This document shows positions 27,470-63,260 of a DNA stretch of 64,000 nucleotides, piece by piece. How positions within the stretch are numbered: the first letter of the stretch is position 1; each line of letters opens with the position of its first letter. A program made the translations under genes and the position numbers. The notes beneath the pieces are model-generated. The model was given only the letters and a program-made list of their open reading frames with translations. It was not told the origin of the DNA and did not search any database. The DNA is from Patescibacteria group bacterium (GTDB lineage: Bacteria > Patescibacteriota > Patescibacteriia > GWA2-46-9): NCBI GenBank assembly GCA_041675205.1, contig JBAYUF010000005.1, positions 6,159-70,158 on the forward strand, read 5' to 3'.

Positions 27470-28792
27470 ATGGTAGACATTCGAAATGTCACACGCGATG
27501 ACTTACCTGTTGTCGCCGAGATGATGCACGAGGCGCTCGATCCGTACTACGGAGGAGATCACCGTGCACACGCGAAACGTATCGTCGAAACCGCCGCAGA
27601 AGGGAGTGCGGATACGAAGGGGCATTTTTCAGCAGCGCAGATCATGTACGTGGCGGAAGAAGAAGGGCAGATTATCGGCCTTCTCAACTTCGTGGTCAAG
27701 CATCAAGGGACGCTGAAGGTCAGTCCGCTCATCGTCCTCGAAGCTGCGCGAGGGAAAGGCGTCGGTCGTCTTCTGTTGCAGAAAATGGAAGCGTACGCGA
27801 AGGAGTACGGTATTCGGCAGATTTACTGTACCGTTGCAGCTCAGAACAAGCTCGCGTTGTCGTACTTCCTCGGCCATGGCTTCATTCGGGCGGGCATGGC
27901 GCATGGACACTACCGGCCCAACGCAGACGAGTGCATGCTGTACAAAGTTGTTGAACATGGACCGCTTCCCGAGGAACGTCTCATCTCCGTGCTACCGATG
28001 ATTGACGACGAAAAACCGCAAGTGCGCGCGTTCGTCAAGGCTCGTCTTGCGCCATACTTCGAAGGCGTCGATGACCGGTGGATGGATGCTCTCTTCGCAG
28101 GGTACGCGCGCAAAGACAGTCGTGACCCCAATGAAAAGTACAAGATCATTTGGGTTGCCAAAGCATCCGACGGCACTGTCCTTGGTGTTGCCGCGGCCAC
28201 ACCGAAGAAGGGGGAGCCAATCAAGTTGATGCCACTCGTGGCAGAAGACATCCGGGCATTCTCAGCCCTCGTTGCGGAGCTCCCTGGTTTACTCCGCGAG
28301 TATGGGCATAAGCTCTACACGCATACCGTACCAACGAGTGTTGAAGCTGAGACGCTTCAGCACCATGGATGGCAGGTGGAAGCGATGATGCCCGAGGCAT
28401 ACAAATGTGGCGTGGTCACCCAACAATGGGGACTCGCACTAGAGGAGAAGGTTATGAAAACAATGCGAGTGAAGCGACAGTATTTCGACGCGATCATGGC
28501 TGGCACTAAGCCGATCGAAGCTCGCGTGGGGTACGACAACATCCGGCGGATCCAGGGCGGAGACAATATTCAGTTGGAATGTGGACGACTCTCGGGGGTC
28601 GTGCAAGTTGTCGACGTACGCGTCTACCGCACGTTCGAGGAGATGCTCCAGACGGAAAATGCTAGGAACATCGTTCCTGACAATCCGGTTGGCGCGCTGG
28701 AAGTTCTCCAGCACATCTATCCACCCGAGAAGGAAAAGCTTGGTGTCTACGTGTTTGAGCTGATGGTGCTGAGGGGTCCGGTTTCTCGGTAG
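27470..28792 (+). CDS. GNAT acetyltransferase fused to a C-terminal ASCH domain (high-GC gene)
   Basis: N-terminal GNAT motif ARGKGVGRLLL; C-terminal YFDAIMAGTKPIEAR ASCH pattern. About 60% GC. Confidence 0.55.
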   Translation: MVDIRNVTRDDLPVVAEMMHEALDPYYGGDHRAHAKRIVETAAEGSADTKGHFSAAQIMYVAEEEGQIIGLLNFVVKHQGTLKVSPLIVLEAARGKGVGRLLLQKMEAYAKEYGIRQIYCTVAAQNKLALSYFLGHGFIRAGMAHGHYRPNADECMLYKVVEHGPLPEERLISVLPMIDDEKPQVRAFVKARLAPYFEGVDDRWMDALFAGYARKDSRDPNEKYKIIWVAKASDGTVLGVAAATPKKGEPIKLMPLVAEDIRAFSALVAELPGLLREYGHKLYTHTVPTSVEAETLQHHGWQVEAMMPEAYKCGVVTQQWGLALEEKVMKTMRVKRQYFDAIMAGTKPIEARVGYDNIRRIQGGDNIQLECGRLSGVVQVVDVRVYRTFEEMLQTENARNIVPDNPVGALEVLQHIYPPEKEKLGVYVFELMVLRGPVSR

Positions 28793-52225: not shown

Positions 52226-52993
52226 TTGGCGATGCTCTTTGGTAAAAAAATAGTTGTCGTCATGCCGGCGTATAACGCCGAGCAAACAGTGCGACAAACG
52301 TATGAAGAAGTACCAAAAGATTTTGTTGATGAGGTAGTTCTTGTTGACGACCAGAGTGTTGATCAAACAGCCGCCGTTGCCGCTTCGCTTGGCATACGGA
52401 CAATCAGCCATCCGAAGAATACGGGGTATGGTGGCAATCAAAAGACATGCTATCGAGAAGCTTTGCGACTCGGGGCGGATGTTGTTGTTATGTTGCATCC
52501 GGATTATCAGTATTCGCCAAAACTTGTACTACCCATGGCGGCGCTCATTGCCAGCGGACAGTATGATGCTGTGCTCGGCTCACGATTTATTTCGGAAGGC
52601 GCCATGAAAAACGGTATGCCGTTGTATAAGTATGTTTCAAACCGTTGTCTGACCTTGTTTGAAAATTTGTGCACCGGCAAACGACTTTCAGAGTATCACA
52701 CGGGCTATCGTGCCTTCTCGCGACGTGTACTCGAGTCGCTGCCGCTTGCCGAGAACTCTGACGATTACGTATTTGATAGCCAGATGCTAGCGCAGGTGTT
52801 GTATGCAGGTTTCAAAGTAGGTGAAATTTCTTGCCCGGCGCGATACTTTCCTGAAGCTTCATCCATAAATTTTCGCCGTTCGGTTCACTATGGGTTTGGT
52901 GTGCTAGCAACGTCACTGCAATATCGACTCAATAAACTTGGGGTAATGAAGACTGGTCGGTTTCAGAATATTCAATTTCCCGACACGTTGTAG
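52226..52993 (+). CDS. family 2 glycosyltransferase (DPM1-like)
   Basis: VVMPAYNAE and [10 protein letters not shown] (DxD) motifs. Confidence 0.75.
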
Positions 52994-53523
52994 CGCTCAG
53001 CATTCTCTAGATGAATGAGCGCGGTCTGTAGTGCCTGGTAGCTGTAGTCAATTCGCGTAATTCTGTTTTTTGTAAGGACACCAATGATGCCGAGATTTTC
53101 ACGGAAAGAACCGTCTTTGCTGTAGCCGAGTTCGACCGCTGCATCGGTTGCTTCCAGGCCGGCTTTCATTTTTGCAATTATTTCAGATTGATACTCAAAG
53201 CAGCTGGACAACCCAAGGTGTACATTTGTGCCATCCCAGATGGCGCATGCGGTTGTATCCATGTGTCCAGTTTTTGTATAGGGGACGTCAATAAGTCCGG
53301 ATTCAAGGCCAACGCCATAGTCTCCACCTAGCTCCATAAGGGCGGCACGAGCACGGTCAGCCGCTCCACGAATTGTTTCTTCAAGGTTCATTGGTTGTGC
53401 TGGCACAGAAGTTTTAACACTGACACCAATAACTTCGGCGTTTGCTAATAGTGGGTATTCACGAACAGCTCTTCGAACGGCTTCCAGCTTCGCTTCGTTT
53501 TTTGTGCCGACGATAATTCGCAT
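52972..53523 (-). CDS. inosine/xanthosine triphosphatase-like NTPase (YjjX family)
   Basis: N-terminal [16 protein letters not shown]. Start trimmed to the ATG at 53523. Confidence 0.5.
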
Positions 53524-53606
53524 AGTTACTATTGGTTGCTGCTTTGCAGTATAGCAAATAAATTGAACGCACTTGTCTTCTGCGCCTGACAAGCTACTAT
53601 ACAACC

Positions 53607-54524
53607 ATGTTTATTGTGGAAATTGCAATCGTTGTTTTTGGCCTCTGCCTTTTTGAGGTAATTTCTAGCATTGATAACGCCATAATCAATGCCGAAGTTT
53701 TAAGTGGCATGGGTGCTAAAGCGAGAAAGTGGTTTTTGTTGTGGGGTTTGTTATTGGCAGTTTTTGTCGTTCGAGGGTTGTTGCCCCTATTCATTGTTTG
53801 GGTCACCGCGCCCGAGCTTGGGTTTTGGGGAGCGTTAACCGCAACGTTTAGTAGTGACCCTCAGGTGCTCGCCGCGGTGGAAATGGCAGCGCCGATACTA
53901 CTCACCGGCGGCGGTGTCTTTTTGATTTTTTTATTTTTCCATTGGTTGTTCTTGGAAGATAAGAATTATGGTCTACCACATGAAAAGTTTTTTTATCGTT
54001 ATGGCCTGTGGTTCTATACCGTGGTTTCGATAATACTTGCAGCAATAGTATGGTTTACTATTCATGAAAATCCCTTGATGGCGTTTAGTGCCGTGGTTGG
54101 GTCAACGGCGTTTTTTATTACCCACGGGTTTAAACAGAACGCCGAATTGGCTGAAAAGGATTTATTGACGTCGCACCGTTCGGATATGAGCAAGATTCTT
54201 TATCTGGAGGTTATTGACGCCACTTTTTCGGTTGACGGAGTTCTCGGTGCATTTGCATTCACCTTATCCGTGCCGCTTATTTTCTTTGGGAATGGTGTGG
54301 GTGCCTATGTTGTGCGGGAGCTTACAATTAGAAATGTCGAGAATATAAAAAAGTATTTGTTTTTGAAAAATGGTGCGATGTATTCGATTCTTTTCTTGGG
54401 AACCATAATGCTGCTTGACGCTTTTGGTGTGCACGTGCCAAGTTGGGTGTCGCCACTGACCACGTTTGGAGTGGTCGGGTATTTCTTTATGAAGTCGAAG
54501 CGGGAGATGGTGGTTAGTGGTTAG
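53607..54524 (+). CDS. DUF475-family integral membrane protein
   Basis: Multi-TM protein with FEVISSIDNAIINAEVL N-terminus. Confidence 0.5.
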   Translation: MFIVEIAIVVFGLCLFEVISSIDNAIINAEVLSGMGAKARKWFLLWGLLLAVFVVRGLLPLFIVWVTAPELGFWGALTATFSSDPQVLAAVEMAAPILLTGGGVFLIFLFFHWLFLEDKNYGLPHEKFFYRYGLWFYTVVSIILAAIVWFTIHENPLMAFSAVVGSTAFFITHGFKQNAELAEKDLLTSHRSDMSKILYLEVIDATFSVDGVLGAFAFTLSVPLIFFGNGVGAYVVRELTIRNVENIKKYLFLKNGAMYSILFLGTIMLLDAFGVHVPSWVSPLTTFGVVGYFFMKSKREMVVSG

Positions 54525-54538
54525 TAGCGGGTGGTCTA

Positions 54539-54952
54539 TTATGGAGTCGTCTTTATAGCCCGCGAAGAAGTGTCTAGCCAGGATTCAGGAAGAAGTTCAA
54601 ACATTTTTATATTTCTATCTTGCGCTACGTGAACAAGCGTTTCTTTGTTGTTGGCGTGTATTTGAAGCAGTAGTTCTCGACAGCGACCACAGGGTGGAAT
54701 AACAGTTCCGGAATTTTTAACCGCCAACATTTCTACAACTTCAGATTCACCTGATTTTAACATTTCAGCCACTGCTGCGTGTTCAGCGCAAAAGCCAAGA
54801 CTGCAGTCAGTATCAATGCAGATTCCCGTATAAATATTTCCATCCTTCGTTTTTAGGGCGGCTCCGACCCCGCCACAACTTGCAAAAGGGGTTAGTTGAC
54901 GGCCAGCACTTATCGCAAATGCTTTTTGGTAGAGTTCTTCAAAATTATTCAT
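54539..54952 (-). CDS. cdd: cytidine deaminase
   Basis: CAEHAA...PCGRCRELL zinc-binding motifs. Confidence 0.8.
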   Translation of the reverse strand: MNNFEELYQKAFAISAGRQLTPFASCGGVGAALKTKDGNIYTGICIDTDCSLGFCAEHAAVAEMLKSGESEVVEMLAVKNSGTVIPPCGRCRELLLQIHANNKETLVHVAQDRNIKMFELLPESWLDTSSRAIKTTP

Positions 54953-55240: not shown

Positions 55241-55244
55241 GTGT

Positions 55245-55321
55245 GGTCGGGCTGGCGGGACTCGAACCCGCGACCTCGTCGTCCCGAACGACGCGCGCTA
55301 GCCAACTGCGCTACAGCCCGA
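55245..55321 (-). tRNA. tRNA-Pro (anticodon CGG), CCA encoded
   Basis: Reverse complement folds as CGGGCTG acceptor, GCGCAGTTGGCTAGCGC D-arm, anticodon loop TTCGGGA, T-arm GCGGGTTCGAGTCCCGC. Confidence 0.8.
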
Positions 55322-57186: not shown

Positions 57187-58476
57187 GTGGCTATACAACA
57201 AGCCGATTCAAGTGACGATTTGTTTGCCGCTCGCGGCATAGAAGAAAAAAAGCAATTCGCACCACTAGCAGACCGCATGCGGCCGAGTACGCTTGCTGAA
57301 TTTTTTGGGCAAACACATTTGGTTGGTGAAGGCACGTCACTGCGTCAGGTGCTCGAGGCTGATGCGGTGCCTTCAATGATTTTGTGGGGGCCGCCAGGGT
57401 CGGGGAAGACAACGTTGGCTCGCATTGTCGCTCATATGACTGGTTCGACGTTTATTTCTTTCCACGCAGTAACGGAAGGGGTGGCGGCATTACGGAAAGT
57501 TATTGCCGAAGCCGCCGAGCGGCTTAACTTATATCATTCGAGAACGATTTTATTTATTGATGAGATTCATCGCTGGAGTAAGGCGCAGCAAGACGCCCTG
57601 TTGCCGCATGTTGAAAATGGAACCATCACCTTAATCGGAGCGACAACGGAGAATCCATCATTTGAAGTCGTCAGCGCTTTGCTATCTCGTTGTCGTGTTT
57701 TTACGTTTCAAAAACTTACCACCGATGAAGTTGCGGCTATCATACATCGGGCGTTGTCTGATCGCACGATGGGTTTGGGTAATATTCGTGTGGCTGCGCC
57801 AACAGTTTTGTTTTTGGCAGCCGCGGCGGATGGTGACGCGCGTGTGGCGCTCAACGCATTAGAATTTGCTGTAAAAGCAGCGGTGCGACAAGGACGTATG
57901 GACATTACAAAAGAAGACATTATCCAGGCGTTATCCTCACCACAACTACCGTACGACAAAAATGGCGAAGAACATCACAATATAATCTCAGCGCTTCATA
58001 AAAGTATGCGTGGCTCAGACGCTAATGCGTCGCTCTATTGGCTGGGTCGAATGCTCGAGGCAGGGGAGGATCCGCTCTACGTGGCTCGGCGATTGGTTCG
58101 TTTTGCGAGTGAAGATATTGGCTTGGCGGATCCGAACGCCTTAGTGGTGGCGGTTGCCGGTTTTCAAGCGACGCACGTCATTGGCATGCCCGAGGCGAAC
58201 GTCGTGCTGGCTGAAGTTGCGGCGTATTTAGCGCGGGCACCAAAATCTAATGCGGTGTACACGGCTTATGGAGCGGTGCAGGAAGCTATTCGTGACACTG
58301 GCGCTCTTCCTGTGCCGCTCCACCTTAGGAATGCGCCAACTGCACTTATGCGAGAATTGAATTATGGAAAAGGGTACCAATATACGCCAGAAGCAAAAAA
58401 GCGTGGAGAAGCATTAGCGCAGACCTATTTGCCAGATGAAATCAGTGACCACGAATTTTTTAAAGCGGACGCTTAA
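57187..58476 (+). CDS. rarA: replication-associated recombination protein A (AAA+ ATPase RarA/MgsA)
   Basis: Walker [10 protein letters not shown], Walker B FIDEIHRW, sensor and C-terminal MgsA domains. Confidence 0.85.
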
Positions 58477-58482
58477 AAAAGA

Positions 58483-58530
58483 CCGGCCGGCTACCTCGAG
58501 AGAGAGCGTAGCCGGCCTTGGTGCGGGGGA
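58483..58530. terminator. GC-rich hairpin terminator (GACCGGCCGGCTAC...GTAGCCGGCC), probably bidirectional
   Basis: Perfect 14-bp stem between the convergent rarA and minus-strand genes. Confidence 0.6.
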
Positions 58531-58553
58531 GCGGTTGTCCTGACGGCGCGGCG

Positions 58554-58721
58554 TCAGGAGGTGGGGAATAGGACCGACCAGATGATCGGTCCGGCGACAA
58601 AGATGAAGATGAAGGTGAGGCCGATGATGCCGACCTTCCTCTTGGTCTCTTCACTCCAGCCGATGTTCGAAGGTGCCTTGGAAGGTACGATGACCTGTCG
58701 CTTCTGTCGGTTTCGACTCAT
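58554..58721 (-). CDS. small high-GC membrane protein (55 aa), absent from the ORF track
   Basis: Strong SD (AAGGAGG) 6 nt upstream of the ATG. MSRNRQKRQVIVPSKAPSNIGWSEETKRKVGIIGLTFIFIFVAGPIIWSVLFPTS. Confidence 0.45.
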   Translation of the reverse strand: MSRNRQKRQVIVPSKAPSNIGWSEETKRKVGIIGLTFIFIFVAGPIIWSVLFPTS

Positions 58722-58739
58722 GGCGTTGCCTCCTTGTTG

Positions 58740-59003
58740 CTATTTGGCGATTGTTTTCTGTGCGAGCGTCTGTCGCCTCGCGCGGGAACGATTCGCAATG
58801 ACTTGCAGTCGCACGATTCCGAAAATCGAAACGACGATGAACGCGAGTGGGAACCACGCGTCCTTCTTGAATTGTTCGGCGACCAGAACTATCGCGCTCG
58901 CGAGCGCCACAATTCCAAAGCCGAGTTGGTACGCACGAAGCAGTTGCACGTTTCTCTTGCCTCCTTGTCTATCGCTAAGCGAGTCGACTCGCTTTTTTAT
59001 CAT
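58740..59003 (-). CDS. small two-TM hypothetical membrane protein
   Basis: 87-aa ORF with two hydrophobic helices. Confidence 0.4.
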   Translation of the reverse strand: MIKKRVDSLSDRQGGKRNVQLLRAYQLGFGIVALASAIVLVAEQFKKDAWFPLAFIVVSIFGIVRLQVIANRSRARRQTLAQKTIAK

Positions 59004-59029
59004 TTCACAGCCACTTTGTCAACGCTTCT

Positions 59030-59377
59030 TTGAGTTGGTATACTGTGGTTACTATGACTGATGAACGTTGGGACGAATTAATCGGACAATTGAAAGATGC
59101 TGGTGTTGTTGAGTCGGAAGTTGAGGAGACGCTGGAAGACCGGCCGGGTGTGGTAATTCGGGTTATCGCTAAAACTCCCGCTGGGCGTGTTTGCTTATCT
59201 CGCACAACACAGCCGCGCAAAATAGGCGAAAAAACTTTTTTTGCTAAACGGTCTAGTTCCACGGCCGCAGTAGAAAACGTTTATGACGAAAAAGACGTTG
59301 TGCATGTTTTCACCGTAGAACGTGAAATAGACGGTGAATGGTCGGAAATTAGGGCAAGTGACTTTGGCCTTGGATAA
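59030..59377 (+). CDS. hypothetical protein
   Basis: ORF with no motif. Start may be the Met at 59054. Confidence 0.4.
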   Translation: MSWYTVVTMTDERWDELIGQLKDAGVVESEVEETLEDRPGVVIRVIAKTPAGRVCLSRTTQPRKIGEKTFFAKRSSSTAAVENVYDEKDVVHVFTVEREIDGEWSEIRASDFGLG

Positions 59378-59806: not shown

Positions 59807-60691
59807 GTGCGCAACTACGCTTTAGGTTTACTACAATGGTTGCGCCAGCTATACAACCGTTTGCGATACGCTGGCCGGGGGTTTCTTTTGACGCTGCGTC
59901 AGCAACCAGCACGGCGACTACTACCAATAATAAGTGGCGTCGTTTCTATTAGTCTTTTTGAATTTGTACTGTTTCGCCCCGACCTTTGGGCAATAGTGAT
60001 TCTGCTCATTATCGCCATGGCTGTTACCACGGGTATTGGTCTTATGAACACCCGGCTCACTTTACCAGGTTGGTGGCACACGCTTATTACCCCGGCGCTT
60101 CTGGGTATTACCTCGGTCGGGCTTTTGCTTTTTCTCCCTACTGCAACCAGTCGTCAGGTAACCATTATTCTCGTTGCCGCCTTGTTTTTACTGTTTTGGG
60201 AAAACATTTGGCGCTATTACTGGGATAGGGCGCGGTATCATGATGAGGCACTTGAAAATATATCGCTGGCGTTAAACACCGCCATCATCTGGTTCTTTTC
60301 TCTCTTTGCGTTTAATGCACTACTCGACGCCACGATTTTCCCTGGCATTATTGCAAGCAATGCACTCCTCATTGGTTCAGGGTTAGTGGTGGCAATCGTT
60401 TTCTTTATCGATTACCGCACAATTTGGGTGCAACGGTACAATGCAGAAACCGTCTGGCTGCTGCAAGTATCGCAAGCGTTAATTTTAGGCGAACTATTTT
60501 GGGTAACCAATTTCTTACCGCACAGTGTTGAAGTAAAGTCTTTCTTGCTGGTTTTGGCGTACTATCTATTTACAAATATTGGCCGGTCATACTTAGACGG
60601 CACCCTGCGGTCGTCTGTGCTTCGTCGGTATCTGTACCTTGGCACGTTTACCTTGCTTGCTGTCTTTATTACTGCTAATTGGTTTGTTTAG
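59807..60691 (+). CDS. polytopic hypothetical membrane protein
   Basis: Eight or more predicted TM helices. Confidence 0.5.
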   Translation: MRNYALGLLQWLRQLYNRLRYAGRGFLLTLRQQPARRLLPIISGVVSISLFEFVLFRPDLWAIVILLIIAMAVTTGIGLMNTRLTLPGWWHTLITPALLGITSVGLLLFLPTATSRQVTIILVAALFLLFWENIWRYYWDRARYHDEALENISLALNTAIIWFFSLFAFNALLDATIFPGIIASNALLIGSGLVVAIVFFIDYRTIWVQRYNAETVWLLQVSQALILGELFWVTNFLPHSVEVKSFLLVLAYYLFTNIGRSYLDGTLRSSVLRRYLYLGTFTLLAVFITANWFV

Positions 60692-60852
60692 GGCGGTGTA
60701 GATAGGGTAGTTACCATTGACTTTTTGAATAAAAAGTAGTAATTTCTTTGGTCGCCTACAGTCGTAGGGGGCCAGCTTTTCTCGTGAGTAACGAGACTAA
60801 GTTGAGCTGAATGTTCACTGACAATCAAAGGTTTTTAGAAGGAGAAATTCCG

Positions 60853-61056
60853 ATGGCCGAGAAATCTGAGACGAAACAGCCGATGGGGTTTGTTTGCCCT
60901 GGCTGGGCAAAGCCTCACTGGAATGCCCTCGAGTGCACTATCGAAGAGTGCACCGACGGCAGTCACGTCGTGCTGGACCACTCGTTGAACGGCGTGACCA
61001 TTTATGCCGGTGCAACGCGTAAAGATTGCAGCGACTGGCTGAATCCCTACTGCTAA
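60853..61056 (+). CDS. small Cys-containing hypothetical protein (high-GC module, gene 1)
   Basis: SD (AGAAGGAGAAAT) before the ATG at 60853. About 58% GC. Confidence 0.4.
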   Translation: MAEKSETKQPMGFVCPGWAKPHWNALECTIEECTDGSHVVLDHSLNGVTIYAGATRKDCSDWLNPYC

Positions 61057-61096
61057 CCTTCGCTACTGCGAAGCTGACTAAGAAACTGGAGGAACC

Positions 61097-61684
61097 ATGA
61101 ACGGGATATTTTCCATGACCCAGTTCCTCCAGGAATACCCTGAGGTGCTGGACCCACGTCGATTAGTCGACGATGAGGAACATTACCGGCGATGGATTGC
61201 GGCGCGAGAAACGCTCGTCTGGAAGGCCTACGCCGCCAGAGAACGAGCAATTTCGTATCGCGGCTTTAAGGTAGGGTGCGCCGTTTACGCATGGCGACCA
61301 TATCGAGAAGCCAAAGAAGCATGGCAGGTTAGCGAAGACCCCGCTGACTACATGGGTGTCCGGTGGACGACGTTCACTGGGGCAAACATGAAGACGGCAG
61401 AGGATATTCGCCCAGTTTGCGCCGAACAAGTGGCAGTTTCCGCAGCTCGTATGGCTGGCTATACCCGTATCATTGGGATTGTCGTTGTCGGCGAACCGCA
61501 AACTGACCACGATAGTGGACTCAGCCACAGAACGCTGCACCCGTGTGGCGTTTGCAGACGAACCCTTGCTGCACTTCCAGAGGTGCATGGCGACACTCCA
61601 ATTCTGACCGGAGGAATCGATGGAGACGTCATTCATCTCGAAGAGTTCAGCTTGGACGAGCTCGTGCAGTTGCACGAGATTTGA
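61097..61684 (+). CDS. CDA-fold zinc-dependent nucleotide/nucleic-acid deaminase-like protein (high-GC module, gene 2)
   Basis: CAEQVAVSAA (C/H-A-E) and HPCGVCRRTL (PCxxC) zinc motifs. Strong SD (CTGGAGGAACCATG). Confidence 0.55.
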   Translation: MNGIFSMTQFLQEYPEVLDPRRLVDDEEHYRRWIAARETLVWKAYAARERAISYRGFKVGCAVYAWRPYREAKEAWQVSEDPADYMGVRWTTFTGANMKTAEDIRPVCAEQVAVSAARMAGYTRIIGIVVVGEPQTDHDSGLSHRTLHPCGVCRRTLAALPEVHGDTPILTGGIDGDVIHLEEFSLDELVQLHEI

Positions 61685-61710
61685 TGGTCAACCAACAAGG
61701 AGAAGAAACC

Positions 61711-62013
61711 ATGAAACCAACACGTGTGGTCGTCATCGACGACGGCCCCGAAGGCCTGAAAGCGTACCTCGGTACGCTGGATGGAACGGGGACTGTCTAC
61801 TTCACCCGTTGCGGTGACGGTGGATGCCCGGTGACTCAAGCCGACCCCTCCGAACTTCCGGCGGACGGCTGGGTCGAGAGTGTCGGCGGCGACGAGCTGC
61901 ACGTCGACGTCGAGAACGTCCGGATTAGTCTGGACGACGGCCGCATCAAGTGGGACGTCAGCTGTGACTGGTTCGAAGTCTCACCGCAGCCCCTGAGCCC
62001 CGACGAAGCCTGA
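61711..62013 (+). CDS. small hypothetical protein (high-GC module, gene 3)
   Basis: SD (CAAGGAGAAGAAACC) before the ATG at 61711. 100 aa, acidic. Confidence 0.4.
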   Translation: MKPTRVVVIDDGPEGLKAYLGTLDGTGTVYFTRCGDGGCPVTQADPSELPADGWVESVGGDELHVDVENVRISLDDGRIKWDVSCDWFEVSPQPLSPDEA

Positions 62014-62168
62014 GTCAGCCACCCGGCGACGAAGACAACCTACAATCAGAAGACCCCCGCATCGCTTGAAATAATAGTGGTGTCGGGGTCTTTAAACTTT
62101 ATGAAGTAAAAATGGCGTTTAATGATAGGCTCGCCCCACAGCGAGCCTTCTGCTATTATTCTTTCACT

Positions 62169-63260
62169 ATGGAACAAACAGAGATACCAACGTTTCCACT
62201 CGAGCGCAAAGCAGGCGTTCCAGTGCCGGTGTTAATCATTCTGTCGCTGGCTGGCGGTATGGCTGGAGCGGCGCTTCTTTTTTCGTTGTTTCCGGAACTC
62301 AGAAAAGCAGTAATCCCACCGGGTACAGAGTCTGTCATTGTGTCGTCTCCTGGTACGGTGGTGGTTGAAGAGGGGGCACGAGTGGTGGATGTTGTTCGGC
62401 AGAGCAAAACAGTTGTCGCTTCGATATTTAAGAAAGGTAATACCACCCGTCTTGGCAGCAGTGTTGTTTATCCACACTCCTCGGCAAGTGGCTCGGCAAT
62501 TATGCTGACAGCGGATGGTTGGTTTGGAACTGTTCAAAACGCCAATGTTTTGGTTGGGGATATCTTGATTGTGGATAATGTTCCTTTCGAAATTAAGACT
62601 GTGTATAAAGACAGTGCTAGCCCATTCGTGCTCGGCAAGGTTGAAGGTGCCCATTTCGCCTCTGTTACTTTTTCAGAACCAGATAACGTAGCGGTCGGAA
62701 TGACCGTTGTCGCCACAACCGGCGAGGAAGATGGCGAGCGTCTTTCACTTGTTTCTTTGACCACACCTTTCGATAGTAGCGACAAGGTACTCACGAGTGA
62801 CCGCCTCACCTATGGGTATGGGGTTTCCTCACTTCGGTTATCGACCGTTGGAATTCCGGTTTTCAGTTTACGCGGTGACCTCGTGGGCCTGACAACAAGC
62901 TCTACGTCTGGCGCAACGGTTTTGGTTCCGGCGGACGTATTGCAGTCACTTCTTGATCAGCAAATTCAATTCTCGAATAGTAAGCGAGCGAGCCTGGGTA
63001 TTACCTACGTGCGGGCATCAGTGCAGGGGGATGTGAGCGGCATGATTAGAACTGTTGTCGCTAGTGCTGCAAAGAGTGCTTCCATACCGGTTGGTAGCAT
63101 CATTGTTTCAATTGATGAAGAAATAGTTGAAGACGCAGATATTTTTCGGGTGATATCTAAAAAACAACCTGGTCAAACAGTTACGTTGAAATATCGCTCT
63201 GGTGTGGAAAGTTCTCAAATCATTGAGAAGACAGTAATCCTTGGTGAGTTATCCACCTGA
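62169..63260 (+). CDS. HtrA/DegP-like trypsin-fold protein with C-terminal PDZ domain, catalytic motifs degenerate
   Basis: N-terminal TM, a trypsin-like beta-barrel region, and a PDZ-like C-terminus (GSIIVSIDEEIVEDADIFRVISKKQPGQTVTLKY). No recognizable GNSGG or TNxHV motifs. Confidence 0.5.
   Translation: MEQTEIPTFPLERKAGVPVPVLIILSLAGGMAGAALLFSLFPELRKAVIPPGTESVIVSSPGTVVVEEGARVVDVVRQSKTVVASIFKKGNTTRLGSSVVYPHSSASGSAIMLTADGWFGTVQNANVLVGDILIVDNVPFEIKTVYKDSASPFVLGKVEGAHFASVTFSEPDNVAVGMTVVATTGEEDGERLSLVSLTTPFDSSDKVLTSDRLTYGYGVSSLRLSTVGIPVFSLRGDLVGLTTSSTSGATVLVPADVLQSLLDQQIQFSNSKRASLGITYVRASVQGDVSGMIRTVVASAAKSASIPVGSIIVSIDEEIVEDADIFRVISKKQPGQTVTLKYRSGVESSQIIEKTVILGELST

Follow-up and report, generated by a model that had tools for sequence, protein, structure and literature searches.

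Does a short GC-rich stretch with three adjacent genes, the central one coding for a deaminase, represent a toxin-immunity or nucleotide-modifying module, as a sequence-only reading had proposed, or is it an accessory islet without functional ties between its members? The window, i.e. the whole stretch of DNA that was analysed, has a length of 64,000 nt, derives from a Patescibacteria group bacterium and carries the three ORFs in the same orientation on the plus strand. The features relevant to the discussion are the following.

54539..54952, - strand: canonical-type tetrameric cytidine deaminase (housekeeping cdd), given for comparison (NF004064, TIGR01354)
59807..60691, + strand: DUF5656 membrane protein, left flank, native, marking the presumed insertion site (Pfam PF18900, 33 bits)
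60853..61056, + strand: ORF1, cysteine-rich acidic orphan of 67 aa (start by SD position; the alternative longest-ORF start at 60811 gives 81 aa)
61097..61684, + strand: ORF2, stand-alone zinc deaminase of 195 aa, CDD/CDA clade, divergent family (PF00383, 30.1 bits)
61711..62013, + strand: ORF3, strongly acidic protein of 100 aa (pI 4.05) from a very small family (start by SD position; three homologue clusters)
62049..62102, + strand: strong hairpin and, after it, UUUAAACUUU, probably terminating the three-gene unit (RNA fold, inverted repeat)
62112..63260, + strand: HtrA/PDZ-like protein of 382 aa, right flank, native (weak Trypsin_2 and PDZ matches)

Composition and layout of the three-gene unit

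The start codons were chosen by homology and by the position of the Shine-Dalgarno (SD) site, which resulted in 60853 for ORF1, 61097 for ORF2 and 61711 for ORF3. All three ORFs called earlier are real, but the start formerly given for ORF1, 60811, is a longest-ORF start without an SD, and 60853 is favoured. The N-terminus of ORF2, counted from the first ATG, is kept in the closest homologues. An AAGGAG is located 8 nt 5' of 60853, a GGAGG 4 nt 5' of 61097 and a second AAGGAG 8 nt 5' of 61711. This confirms that each of the three ORFs has a canonical SD, unlike most local genes, as only about 6 of the 71 other long ORFs (approximately 8%) show an SD core of at least 5 nt at the first start codon. 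A more generous scan, which allowed alternative starts, counted 19 of the 72 long ORFs.

With a GC content of 56.4% as opposed to 46.6% for the window, the three-gene unit is the GC-richest 1.2 kb in the window, which supports the earlier description of a GC-rich module, although the values then given were about 58% and about 48%. Only 0.2% of the windows of the same length reach this GC content, and the top one, at 57.3%, corresponds to the module (60841-62043); values of 54-56% are attained elsewhere in the window, the composition of which is heterogeneous. The GC3 values of 0.69 (ORF1), 0.56 (ORF2) and 0.74 (ORF3) exceed the mean of 72 long ORFs (0.45, sd 0.07) by about 3.3, 1.5 and 4 sd, respectively. 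In 15 of 18 homologous loci the deaminase gene is likewise richer in GC than its neighbours, so that part of the GC excess of ORF2 is a family trait and not proof of recent transfer.

The intergenic gaps are short, with 40 nt between ORF1 and ORF2 and 26 nt between ORF2 and ORF3. The hairpin at the end of the unit (62049-62093) has a predicted energy of -33.4 kcal/mol (z = -4.7 compared to shuffles) and was also recovered as an inverted repeat, while a simple terminator scan, owing to the loop of more than 8 nt, passed over it. Given the compact co-directional layout, the strong SD of each gene and the closing hairpin, ORF1, ORF2 and ORF3 probably form a single transcript.

Position between two native genes

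The DUF5656 and HtrA/PDZ-like genes, which are 1,420 nt apart in the window, are separated by 42 nt in a distant syntenic relative (L039), in which homologues of window genes follow each other in the order p59030, p59380, DUF5656, the 42-nt gap and the HtrA-like gene. The DUF5656 protein of L039 is 34% identical to that of the window, and its Trypsin_2+PDZ protein of 383 aa is homologous to the HtrA/PDZ-like protein (E 3e-14). Since the flanking genes are so close to each other in L039, the three-gene unit reads as an insertion. Comparators for synteny were collected via MgsA, which yielded 80 loci, all with at most 60% identity, and local synteny is kept only in L039, a distant comparator with an MgsA 56% identical to that of the window. 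With this single comparator, a deletion in the L039 lineage may explain the difference instead of an insertion here. The HtrA-like protein as query gave no match among metagenome contigs, and for a comparison of divergence with housekeeping genes no orthologues shared with the deaminase-homologue loci L001 and L003 were found within the 64-kb window.

Neither a tRNA, an integrase nor repeats were detected at the islet. The tRNA scan found no tRNA target there, the nearest tRNA being 5.5 kb off; the repeat scan gave no meaningful flanking direct repeats or target-site duplication; the search for an integrase or transposase revealed no integrase-like ORF in the region of 58-64 kb; and the Rfam scan showed no RNA family near the module. 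The horizontal acquisition that had been proposed from composition is borne out by composition, by SD usage and by the one synteny comparison. L111, a high-GC contig (58.6% GC), carries a deaminase with 61% identity to ORF2, the composition of which looks native and the SD context of which is nearly identical, and the same sample includes a contig of 61% GC with a homologue of ORF3. Both would fit a donor lineage of the islet genes that has a higher GC content and uses SD sites.

The ORF2 deaminase and its family

The zinc motifs that had been noted in the central protein are present as C108-A-E110 and P149-C150-G-V-C153-R154, and Foldseek, profile and Pfam searches agree on an enzyme of the cytidine-deaminase fold that differs from the housekeeping cdd. 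PF00383 is the only Pfam domain that reaches its threshold (cutoff of 25 bits). The AF2 model of ORF2 (pLDDT 94.1) has as top Foldseek matches the homotetrameric cytidine deaminases (TM 0.75-0.84, target-normalised; E 5e-9), followed by blasticidin-S deaminases (BSD) as a second group (E 6e-6 to 4e-5; TM 0.65-0.71), and the best 50 PDB matches comprise CDD and BSD structures exclusively; neither TadA nor a dCMP deaminase occurs among them. The family profile matches the CDAs of the PDB with E 9e-12. ORF2 clusters with housekeeping-type cytidine deaminases and not with TadA or dCMP deaminases, yet it belongs to a separate family. Its description as unrelated to the cdd of the window (NF004064 72.9 bits, cutoff 74; TIGR01354 55.5 bits) goes too far, as both belong to one clade and are distantly homologous (BLASTP E 3e-4, with the zinc motifs covered; 28% identity over 50 aa).

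Table 1 of Iyer et al. (2011; PMC3239186) gives three synapomorphies for the CDD/CDA clade, namely C[H]AE in helix 2, PCxxCR in helix 3, and a Glu ending strand 5, which pairs with strand 4 as an antiparallel hairpin at the C-terminus. All three are found in ORF2. In the AF2 prediction, the C[H]AE motif lies within helix 109-119, PCxxCR goes with helix 151-159, and E182 is located in the last strand (178-185), which directly follows strand 168-175; no helix, the helix-4 feature of the TadA/dCMP division, occurs between these last two strands in the model. We are confident in placing ORF2 among the zinc deaminases of the CDD/CDA clade. C108, C150 and C153 are the predicted zinc ligands, and E110 is predicted to act as the proton shuttle. 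Since the zinc and catalytic residues, the base-stacking Phe (F57) and the sugar-pocket Asn (N97) are kept, ORF2 is predicted to be active on a sugar-borne cytosine ring.

The sugar pocket itself is altered. In three independent HMMER alignments, N97-x-K99 of ORF2 aligns with the N-x-E motif of the CDAs, in which the side chains of the Asn and the Glu bind the ribose O3' (N44 and E46 in EfCDA; PMC11007441); the Asn is kept and the Glu is replaced by K99. With the homotetrameric CDAs (Cdd/CDA, EC 3.5.4.5; B. subtilis 1JTK, B. anthracis 2D30, E. faecium 8X6U) ORF2 shares the fold with its C-terminal beta-hairpin, the three-Cys zinc site (CAE...PCxxCR), the catalytic Glu, the stacking Phe, the sugar-pocket Asn and the Glu that closes strand 5. 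It differs from them in its low identity of 21-28%, about 45 additional N-terminal residues predicted as helices, insertions after strand 1 and before PCxxC, the Lys in place of the O3'-binding Glu, and the Arg following CAE, which is Gln or variable.

These data bear on the assumption that ORF2 is simply a second cytidine/deoxycytidine deaminase (EC 3.5.4.5), a redundant salvage isozyme for which the small ORFs would be irrelevant. The best matches in sequence and structure are all bona fide cytidine deaminases, the catalytic and zinc residues together with F57 and N97 are kept, the homologues carry the JGI annotation "cytidine deaminase", and CPR bacteria rely on nucleoside salvage. However, a canonical-type cdd is already present about 6 kb away in the same window, all seven NCBIfam cytidine-deaminase models remain far under their cutoffs (e.g., 35.7 vs 74 and 33.2 vs 113.65; the TadA and dCMP-deaminase models gave no match), the O3'-binding Glu is a Lys in 90% of the family, and the family has insertions and an N-terminal extension of its own. 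We therefore regard a plain isozyme as rather unlikely.

The family comprises 164 clusters at E<1e-30 and roughly 700 members, and 14 of its 16 matches among the GTDB representative genomes are Patescibacteria. Of 175 members, 85% have C and 15% have H at the first motif position, and E110 (99%), C150 and C153 (both 99%), R154 (90%), E182 (87%), K99 (90%) and R55 (98%) are largely conserved; R22 and R32 in the N-terminal helical extension do not vary in the 12 closer relatives aligned in A2. In one member the deaminase is joined to a LOG/SLOG domain, a family that includes nucleoside-5'-monophosphate-processing enzymes, and this single fusion hints at nucleotide substrates. A literature search for a deaminase family with the motifs SYRxF, GxNxK and TLHPCxxCR in Patescibacteria retrieved nothing relevant. 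The ORF2 family, which occurs mainly in Patescibacteria, is an uncharacterised side branch of the common cytidine deaminases.

Two other divergent groups of the clade are suitable for comparison. The blasticidin-S deaminases (2Z3G, 1WN6, 3OJ6) are, like ORF2, stand-alone enzymes derived from CDD/CDA with a sugar-pocket motif that departs from N-x-E, and they show that the clade readily retargets to unusual cytosine nucleosides. Going by the descriptions of BSD alone, the ORF2 family is set apart by SYRxF, GxNxK, GxPQxD and TLHPC, which are absent from them. By analogy, ORF2 might be a resistance or tailoring deaminase for a cytosine nucleoside antibiotic, acquired for self-protection. The BSDs form the second structural match group (E ~1e-5), uronic-acid nucleosides have a carboxylate with which the sugar-pocket Lys could pair, the gene is horizontally mobile and stand-alone in habit, and the L111 homologue has as neighbours an ABC exporter and a membrane protein gene tightly coupled to it. 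On the other hand, the similarity to BSD is lower than that to CDA, no biosynthetic genes are located near the deaminase in any locus surveyed, and the family is concentrated in the small-genome Patescibacteria, which are not known to produce antibiotics. We consider an antibiotic-directed enzyme very unlikely. The second group, the LmjF36.5940-like deaminases (PF14421), is also a divergent CDD/CDA offshoot, to which ORF2 (13.6 bits) and one homologue (18.6 bits) show matches below the cutoff of 27.1. This family is mainly eukaryotic, and its members have either CCCH domains or an N-terminal Rossmann-fold domain as fusion partners (PMC3239186), none of which is present in ORF2.

Neighbourhoods, small ORFs and the role of the unit

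The earlier proposal of a toxin-immunity or nucleotide-modifying module rested on the arrangement of a deaminase between small genes. In its strongest form, the deaminase would attack nucleic acid or the nucleotide pool, thereby arresting growth or depleting nucleotides, and would be neutralised through direct binding by the acidic ORF3 and/or by ORF1, as a toxin-immunity, toxin-antitoxin or defence pair. The layout is tight, with the very acidic ORF3 beginning 26 nt past the deaminase stop, and acidity together with a position directly 3' of an enzyme gene fits the pattern of a protein inhibitor. Moreover, the islet appears to be horizontally acquired, the deaminase family is accessory-like, with varied contexts and a GC content above that of the host in 15 of 18 loci, single homologous loci have an integrase or a Gp49/HTH pair nearby, and the conserved basic residues could bind nucleic acid.

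Against this, a tblastn survey of about 24 other homologous deaminase loci revealed neighbours that are all different and none that is related to ORF1 or ORF3, the 84 proteins neighbouring the deaminase homologues showed no Pfam enrichment, and most copies of the deaminase are monocistronic units beside genes in divergent or convergent orientation. For ORF1, an orphan, the database search gave only the protein itself, and it has no credible match in Pfam, NCBIfam, PHROG, PADLOC or the PDB. ORF3 forms three homologue clusters (99, 58 and 52% identity), of which the two divergent ones, the only relatives outside this strain, are found in loci without any deaminase. Neither small ORF is a conserved core gene. 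The AF2 model of ORF3 is unusable (pLDDT 40, from a 4-sequence alignment), and its profile has no match among the PDB sequences. Membership of a known immunity family (SUKH, SUFU, Imm1-6 and others) was tested by the Pfam search, in which neither ORF1 nor ORF3 had a match at E<=0.1.

The deaminase does not resemble a secreted toxin either. Polymorphic-toxin deaminases (DYW-like, SCP1.201/DddA, YwqJ, MafB19, BURPS668_1122) have the deaminase fold and belong to the C-terminal hairpin division as ORF2 does, and a small gene directly downstream and a compositionally foreign locus are common to both. However, they are C-terminal domains of large trafficking proteins or have conserved, tightly linked immunity genes (PMC3239186), whereas ORF2 is a stand-alone protein of 195 aa from a metabolic clade without a conserved neighbour. 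Pfam detected no trafficking or secretion domain in it, its N-terminus appears by inspection to be a hydrophilic helical extension and not a signal peptide, and no toxin-clade Pfam family reached its gathering score. With no conserved neighbours, no trafficking domain, a metabolic clade and no defence match, the toxin-immunity module was rejected, and we consider any toxin, antitoxin or defence pair at this locus quite improbable.

A defence, phage or plasmid origin was rejected as well, since PADLOC, PHROGs, IMG/VR, BFVD, INPHARED and PLSDB lent no support. PADLOC had no match for ORF1, ORF2 or ORF3 at E<=1, and the PHROGs search, the IMG/VR pattern scans with all three proteins and the BFVD fold search found nothing. 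The tblastn search of ORF2 and ORF3 against INPHARED phages and PLSDB plasmids gave only two weak matches, both for ORF2: a Sphingomonas plasmid gene annotated as cytidine deaminase and an unannotated phage record.

We consider it probable that the unit is a horizontally acquired accessory islet between native genes, with ORF2 as an accessory deaminase of altered sugar recognition and ORF1 and ORF3 as unlinked passengers. A small islet of about 1.4 kb would have entered between the DUF5656 and HtrA/PDZ-like genes, which would normally be adjacent. ORF2 would be a cytoplasmic, stand-alone, zinc-dependent hydrolytic deaminase of the CDD/CDA clade. Because of the K99 substitution, the conserved basic residues and the single domain fusion, its substrate may be a cytosine nucleoside or nucleotide in which the sugar moiety is anionic or altered in another way, e.g., a phosphorylated form such as CMP or dCMP, and its role would be that of an accessory enzyme of pyrimidine salvage or detoxification, not of a toxin. 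ORF1, an orphan, and ORF3, the family of which also stands alone, would be co-resident passengers with no demonstrable functional tie to the deaminase. The deaminase between small genes in this GC-rich islet is not part of a conserved toxin-immunity module; the islet would be a mosaic of independently distributed accessory genes.

A more far-reaching reading is that the family with SYRxF, GxNxK and TLHPCxxCR is mobile and centred on Patescibacteria, acts on a novel substrate (CMP, 3'-CMP, cCMP, or cytosine in RNA or DNA) and forms, with ORF3 as inhibitor, a new toxin-antitoxin or nucleotide-signal-quenching pair, which we regard as speculative and very improbable. Under the accessory-islet interpretation, the family may be of interest for the metabolism of its hosts. 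Patescibacteria (CPR) have tiny genomes and use scavenged nucleotides as their supply; because of this dependence, a widespread second cytidine-deaminase-like family with an altered sugar-binding residue may mark an unrecognised step of pyrimidine salvage or of the detoxification of modified cytosine compounds. In addition, enzymes of the CDD/CDA clade that are compact are useful biocatalysts and candidates for engineering.

Layout and composition of the islet

The deaminase gene (ORF2) stands between two small genes, ORF1 and ORF3, all on the same strand and each with its own Shine-Dalgarno (SD) sequence:

60853-61056 (longest form from 60811), + strand: ORF1, ATG at 60853 preceded by AAGGAG 8 nt upstream
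61097-61684, + strand: ORF2, deaminase of 195 aa, GGAGG 4 nt upstream
61711-62013, + strand: ORF3, 100 aa, AAGGAG 8 nt upstream

The intergenic gaps measure 40 nt (ORF1-ORF2) and 26 nt (ORF2-ORF3). The ORF2 start at 61097 is supported by the N-terminal M-x-G-[IV]-x-S-M, which is kept in the alignment of the closest homologues, and the ORF3 start at 61711 by its homologues, which begin at the aligned MRVVVI. On the 3' side of ORF3, a 17-bp hairpin at 62049-62093 followed by UUUAAACUUU (folding energy -33.4 kcal/mol; z = -4.7 against shuffles) is a plausible terminator, and the three genes are probably co-transcribed.

The three-ORF module is moderately unusual for the window. Its GC content is 56.4%, as opposed to 46.6% for the window (sd 4.2% over windows of the same length), a value reached by just 0.2% of same-length windows, the top one being the module itself; 54-56% GC is also attained by other stretches. 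The real GC3 outliers are the two small ORFs (ORF1 0.69, ORF3 0.74; ORF2 0.56), the mean of the 72 long ORFs being 0.45 (sd 0.07). A strong SD core lies 5' of the first start codon in only about 6 of the 71 other long ORFs, and in 19 of 72 if a generous scan includes alternative starts; the chance probability of three consecutive strong SDs is low, at roughly 6e-4 to 2e-2. The description of a GC-rich, SD-bearing three-ORF unit with a central deaminase, given in the sequence-only reading, is thus confirmed by GC, GC3, the SD scan and the motifs.

The ORF at 27470-28792 (440 aa), which encodes a GNAT acetyltransferase domain, is a second compositional outlier and may be of foreign origin; its GC3 of 0.635 is the highest of the long ORFs, and its GC is 55.6%. 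Directly downstream of mgsA, a stretch of 54-56% GC (58476-59030) contains ORFs overlapping on both strands:

58561-59061, + strand: ORF overlapping an opposite-strand ORF
58740-59003, - strand: ORF with hydrophobic segments

The deaminase subfamily and its predicted substrate

ORF2 scores barely above the threshold of Pfam PF00383 (30.1; threshold 25), and all seven cytidine deaminase models of NCBIfam match it far under their own cutoffs. Among PDB sequences it matched tetrameric cytidine deaminases and one blasticidin-S deaminase, the sole others being two RpoD sequences at chance level, and the family profile reached an E-value of 9e-12 against the PDB. The AF2 model, predicted with 29 homologues, is confident (pLDDT 94.1, pTM 0.88). 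In a Foldseek search of the PDB with this model, the top 35 matches were homotetrameric cytidine deaminases (E 5e-9; target-normalised TM 0.75-0.84), blasticidin-S deaminases entered at rank 36, and neither TadA nor dCMP deaminases appeared, which places the protein with the cytidine deaminase type. The synapomorphies of the CDD/CDA clade are C[H]AE, PCxxCR and a Glu ending strand 5 (Iyer et al., 2011, PMC3239186, Table 1). ORF2 has all of them, as C108-A-E110, P149-C150-x-x-C153-R154 and E182, and the final two strands are predicted by AF2 to pair as a hairpin, so that every clade-defining feature tested is present. Since it nevertheless lies below the family score cutoffs and lacks the N-x-E sugar motif of cytidine deaminase equivalogs, ORF2 is regarded here as a new, uncharacterised member or subfamily of the CDD/CDA deaminases. 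The deaminase had been called unrelated to the cdd gene of the window (54539-54952); the two are indeed distinct, but as distant homologues of one clade they are not unrelated. This canonical-type cdd (- strand) lies less than 1 kb from an inosine/xanthosine triphosphatase-like gene (52972-53604, - strand), separated from it by a membrane-protein gene on the + strand, and 52972-54952 may represent a small cluster of native genes for nucleotide housekeeping, distinct from the islet.

The family is distinct, sizeable and uncharacterised. A word-indexed search with ORF2 returned 32 homologues of 81-32% identity, and an exhaustive profile search 164 clusters (50% identity) at E<1e-30, a number that rises to 724 with a threshold of E<1e-10, with source names such as "cytidine deaminase" (JGI) and "hypothetical protein" (NCBI). 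In GTDB representative genomes, 14 of the 16 matches are from Patescibacteria (Doudnabacteria, Saccharibacteria, Yanofskybacteria, Falkowbacteria, Paceibacterota, Parcubacteria), the remaining two being MAGs labelled Gammaproteobacteria.

Conservation in 175 family sequences (ORF2 numbering)
R55 (S-Y-R-x-F-x-V-G): 98%
N97: 100%
K99 (G-x-N-x-K): 90%
C/H108: C 85%, H 15%
E110: 99%
Q135: 89%
D137: 84%
H148 (T-L-H-P-C): 83%
C150 and C153: 99% each
R154: 90%
E182: 87%
H193: 81%

In contrast to cytidine deaminases, the family has insertions following strand 1 and ahead of PCxxC, and an extra N-terminal helical extension of about 45 aa. Two residues of this extension, R22 and R32, are invariant in alignment A2, which comprises 12 sequences of closer relatives. 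F57 is the counterpart of the stacking Phe. Judging from these residues, ORF2 retains the catalytic machinery and the base pocket, with a sugar pocket switched from acidic to basic, because each of three independent alignments by HMMER places N97-x-K99 where cytidine deaminases have N-x-E. Of the domain fusions in the family, only that of the library representative P0168 (377 aa) was informative; it carries a C-terminal LOG ("Lysine_decarbox") SLOG domain. The LOG/SLOG family includes enzymes that process nucleoside 5'-monophosphates, and the fusion hints at nucleotide-level chemistry. From the sugar-pocket change and this fusion, we infer that the substrate is a nucleoside or nucleotide of cytosine whose sugar is anionic or otherwise altered, for which the predicted mechanism would be zinc-dependent hydrolytic deamination of the cytosine. 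To a specialist the three-gene islet is not surprising; the ORF2 family does raise a specific question for the enzymology of nucleotide salvage in CPR bacteria.

Gene neighbourhoods of the deaminase homologues

The neighbours differ at all of the approximately 24 loci inspected, ranging from ribosomal proteins, haem biosynthesis and ABC transporters to an integrase and a Gp49/HTH pair, among others. Most of the homologues are monocistronic and adjoin genes in divergent or convergent orientation, and tblastn found no relatives of ORF1 or ORF3 at these loci. Different genes surround even the most similar homologues (L110, 81% identity; a Uhrbacteria copy, ~78%; L001, 62%; L111, 61%). In the few cases of tight coupling to a downstream gene (L011, L012, L111), these genes are related neither to each other nor to ORF3, and Pfam enrichment among 84 neighbouring proteins gave nothing meaningful (top: generic ABC_tran, 6/84). 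The sole database entry for ORF1 is ORF1 itself; its name, a Patescibacteria group bacterium MAG, and the DUF5656 of the gene upstream of the islet identify the host as a Patescibacteria (CPR) MAG. No match was found for the three ORFs in PADLOC, no informative match in PHROG and no relatives in IMG/VR; INPHARED phages and PLSDB plasmids contained no relatives of ORF2 or ORF3 except two weak deaminase matches, and BFVD no structural relative of the deaminase. The proposed toxin-immunity or other functional three-gene module is therefore without evidence, its partners not being conserved. An inhibitor role of ORF3 would fit where the gene lies and how acidic its product is (pI 4.05; family 4.0-4.5), the only remaining points in favour; however, of its three homologue clusters, one is the same strain and the relatives of 58% and 52% identity both occur in loci without a deaminase, one of them downstream of a coiled-coil ORF of 59 aa and the other adjoining metG, and ORF3 is absent from the other deaminase loci.

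Genes of mobility or addiction type occurred near deaminase homologues in single instances, namely a divergent tyrosine integrase about 350 nt upstream of a deaminase homologue (L013, 88-2084) and a Gp49/HTH toxin-antitoxin-like pair 1.7 kb downstream of another (L010, 6001-9018). In L111 (30-3290), the deaminase overlaps an upstream 59-aa ORF by 4 nt, a multi-pass membrane protein begins 2 nt past its stop and an ABC exporter lies upstream, a possibly transport-linked context not seen at other loci. In the Candidatus Uhrbacteria deaminase gene (L003 5747-6342 = L004 1738-2333), a frameshift close to codon 50 splits the reading frame, and the gene caller reports the 113-aa C-terminal part alone; the split recurs in contigs of at least two independent assemblies (ENA, JGI) and may represent a pseudogene or a recoding site.

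Probable insertion and origin of the islet genes

Searching with MgsA, which is encoded nearby, yielded 80 metagenomic loci for synteny comparison, none closer than 60% identity, and the local gene order is kept in one, L039. There, genes homologous to those at 59030 and 59380 in the window are followed by DUF5656, a 42-nt gap and a 383-aa Trypsin_2+PDZ protein homologous to the 382-aa HtrA/PDZ-like protein of the window (E 3e-14). In the window, the gene carrying DUF5656, upstream of the islet, and that of the 382-aa protein are 1,420 nt apart, the gap being occupied by ORF1-ORF3; the deaminase-ORF3-HtrA arrangement is identical in a contig of a near-identical strain (L009). The best reading, based on one distant comparator and composition, is an insertion between these two genes. 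The flanks were also checked for tRNA, integrase and repeats, as proposed from sequence, and none marks the islet: no integrase was found around it, no flanking direct repeats and no nearby Rfam family in the respective scans, and the nearest tRNA (55244-55320) is 5.5 kb away. Horizontal acquisition itself is supported by composition, SD use and the L039 synteny.

Of 18 loci compared, 15 have a deaminase gene that exceeds its neighbours in GC and GC3 (mean z +1.7 and +1.05; set listed as L001, L010-L013, L015-L028 and the window), so its GC excess is partly a family trait. This is suggestive of repeated horizontal spread out of GC-richer lineages; recurrent transfer or selection on the gene could produce the oddity. 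In the 58.6% GC contig L111, the deaminase does not differ from the adjacent genes in GC or GC3, and its SD context is almost that of the window copy (AAAGGAGGAACCATG vs CTGGAGGAACCATG). A 61% GC contig of the same metagenome (L005) contains an ORF3 homologue preceded by AAGGAGG. The ORF3 family seems to be mobile by itself, since the 52% relative (L008, 1591-1860) forms a one-gene GC-rich islet (58.5% vs ~47% GC in the flanks; GC3 0.74; SD GAGGAGG) next to the methionyl-tRNA synthetase gene. On this circumstantial evidence, the window islet resembles a mosaic of accessory genes that move independently of one another, and their source would be higher in GC and use SD sites.
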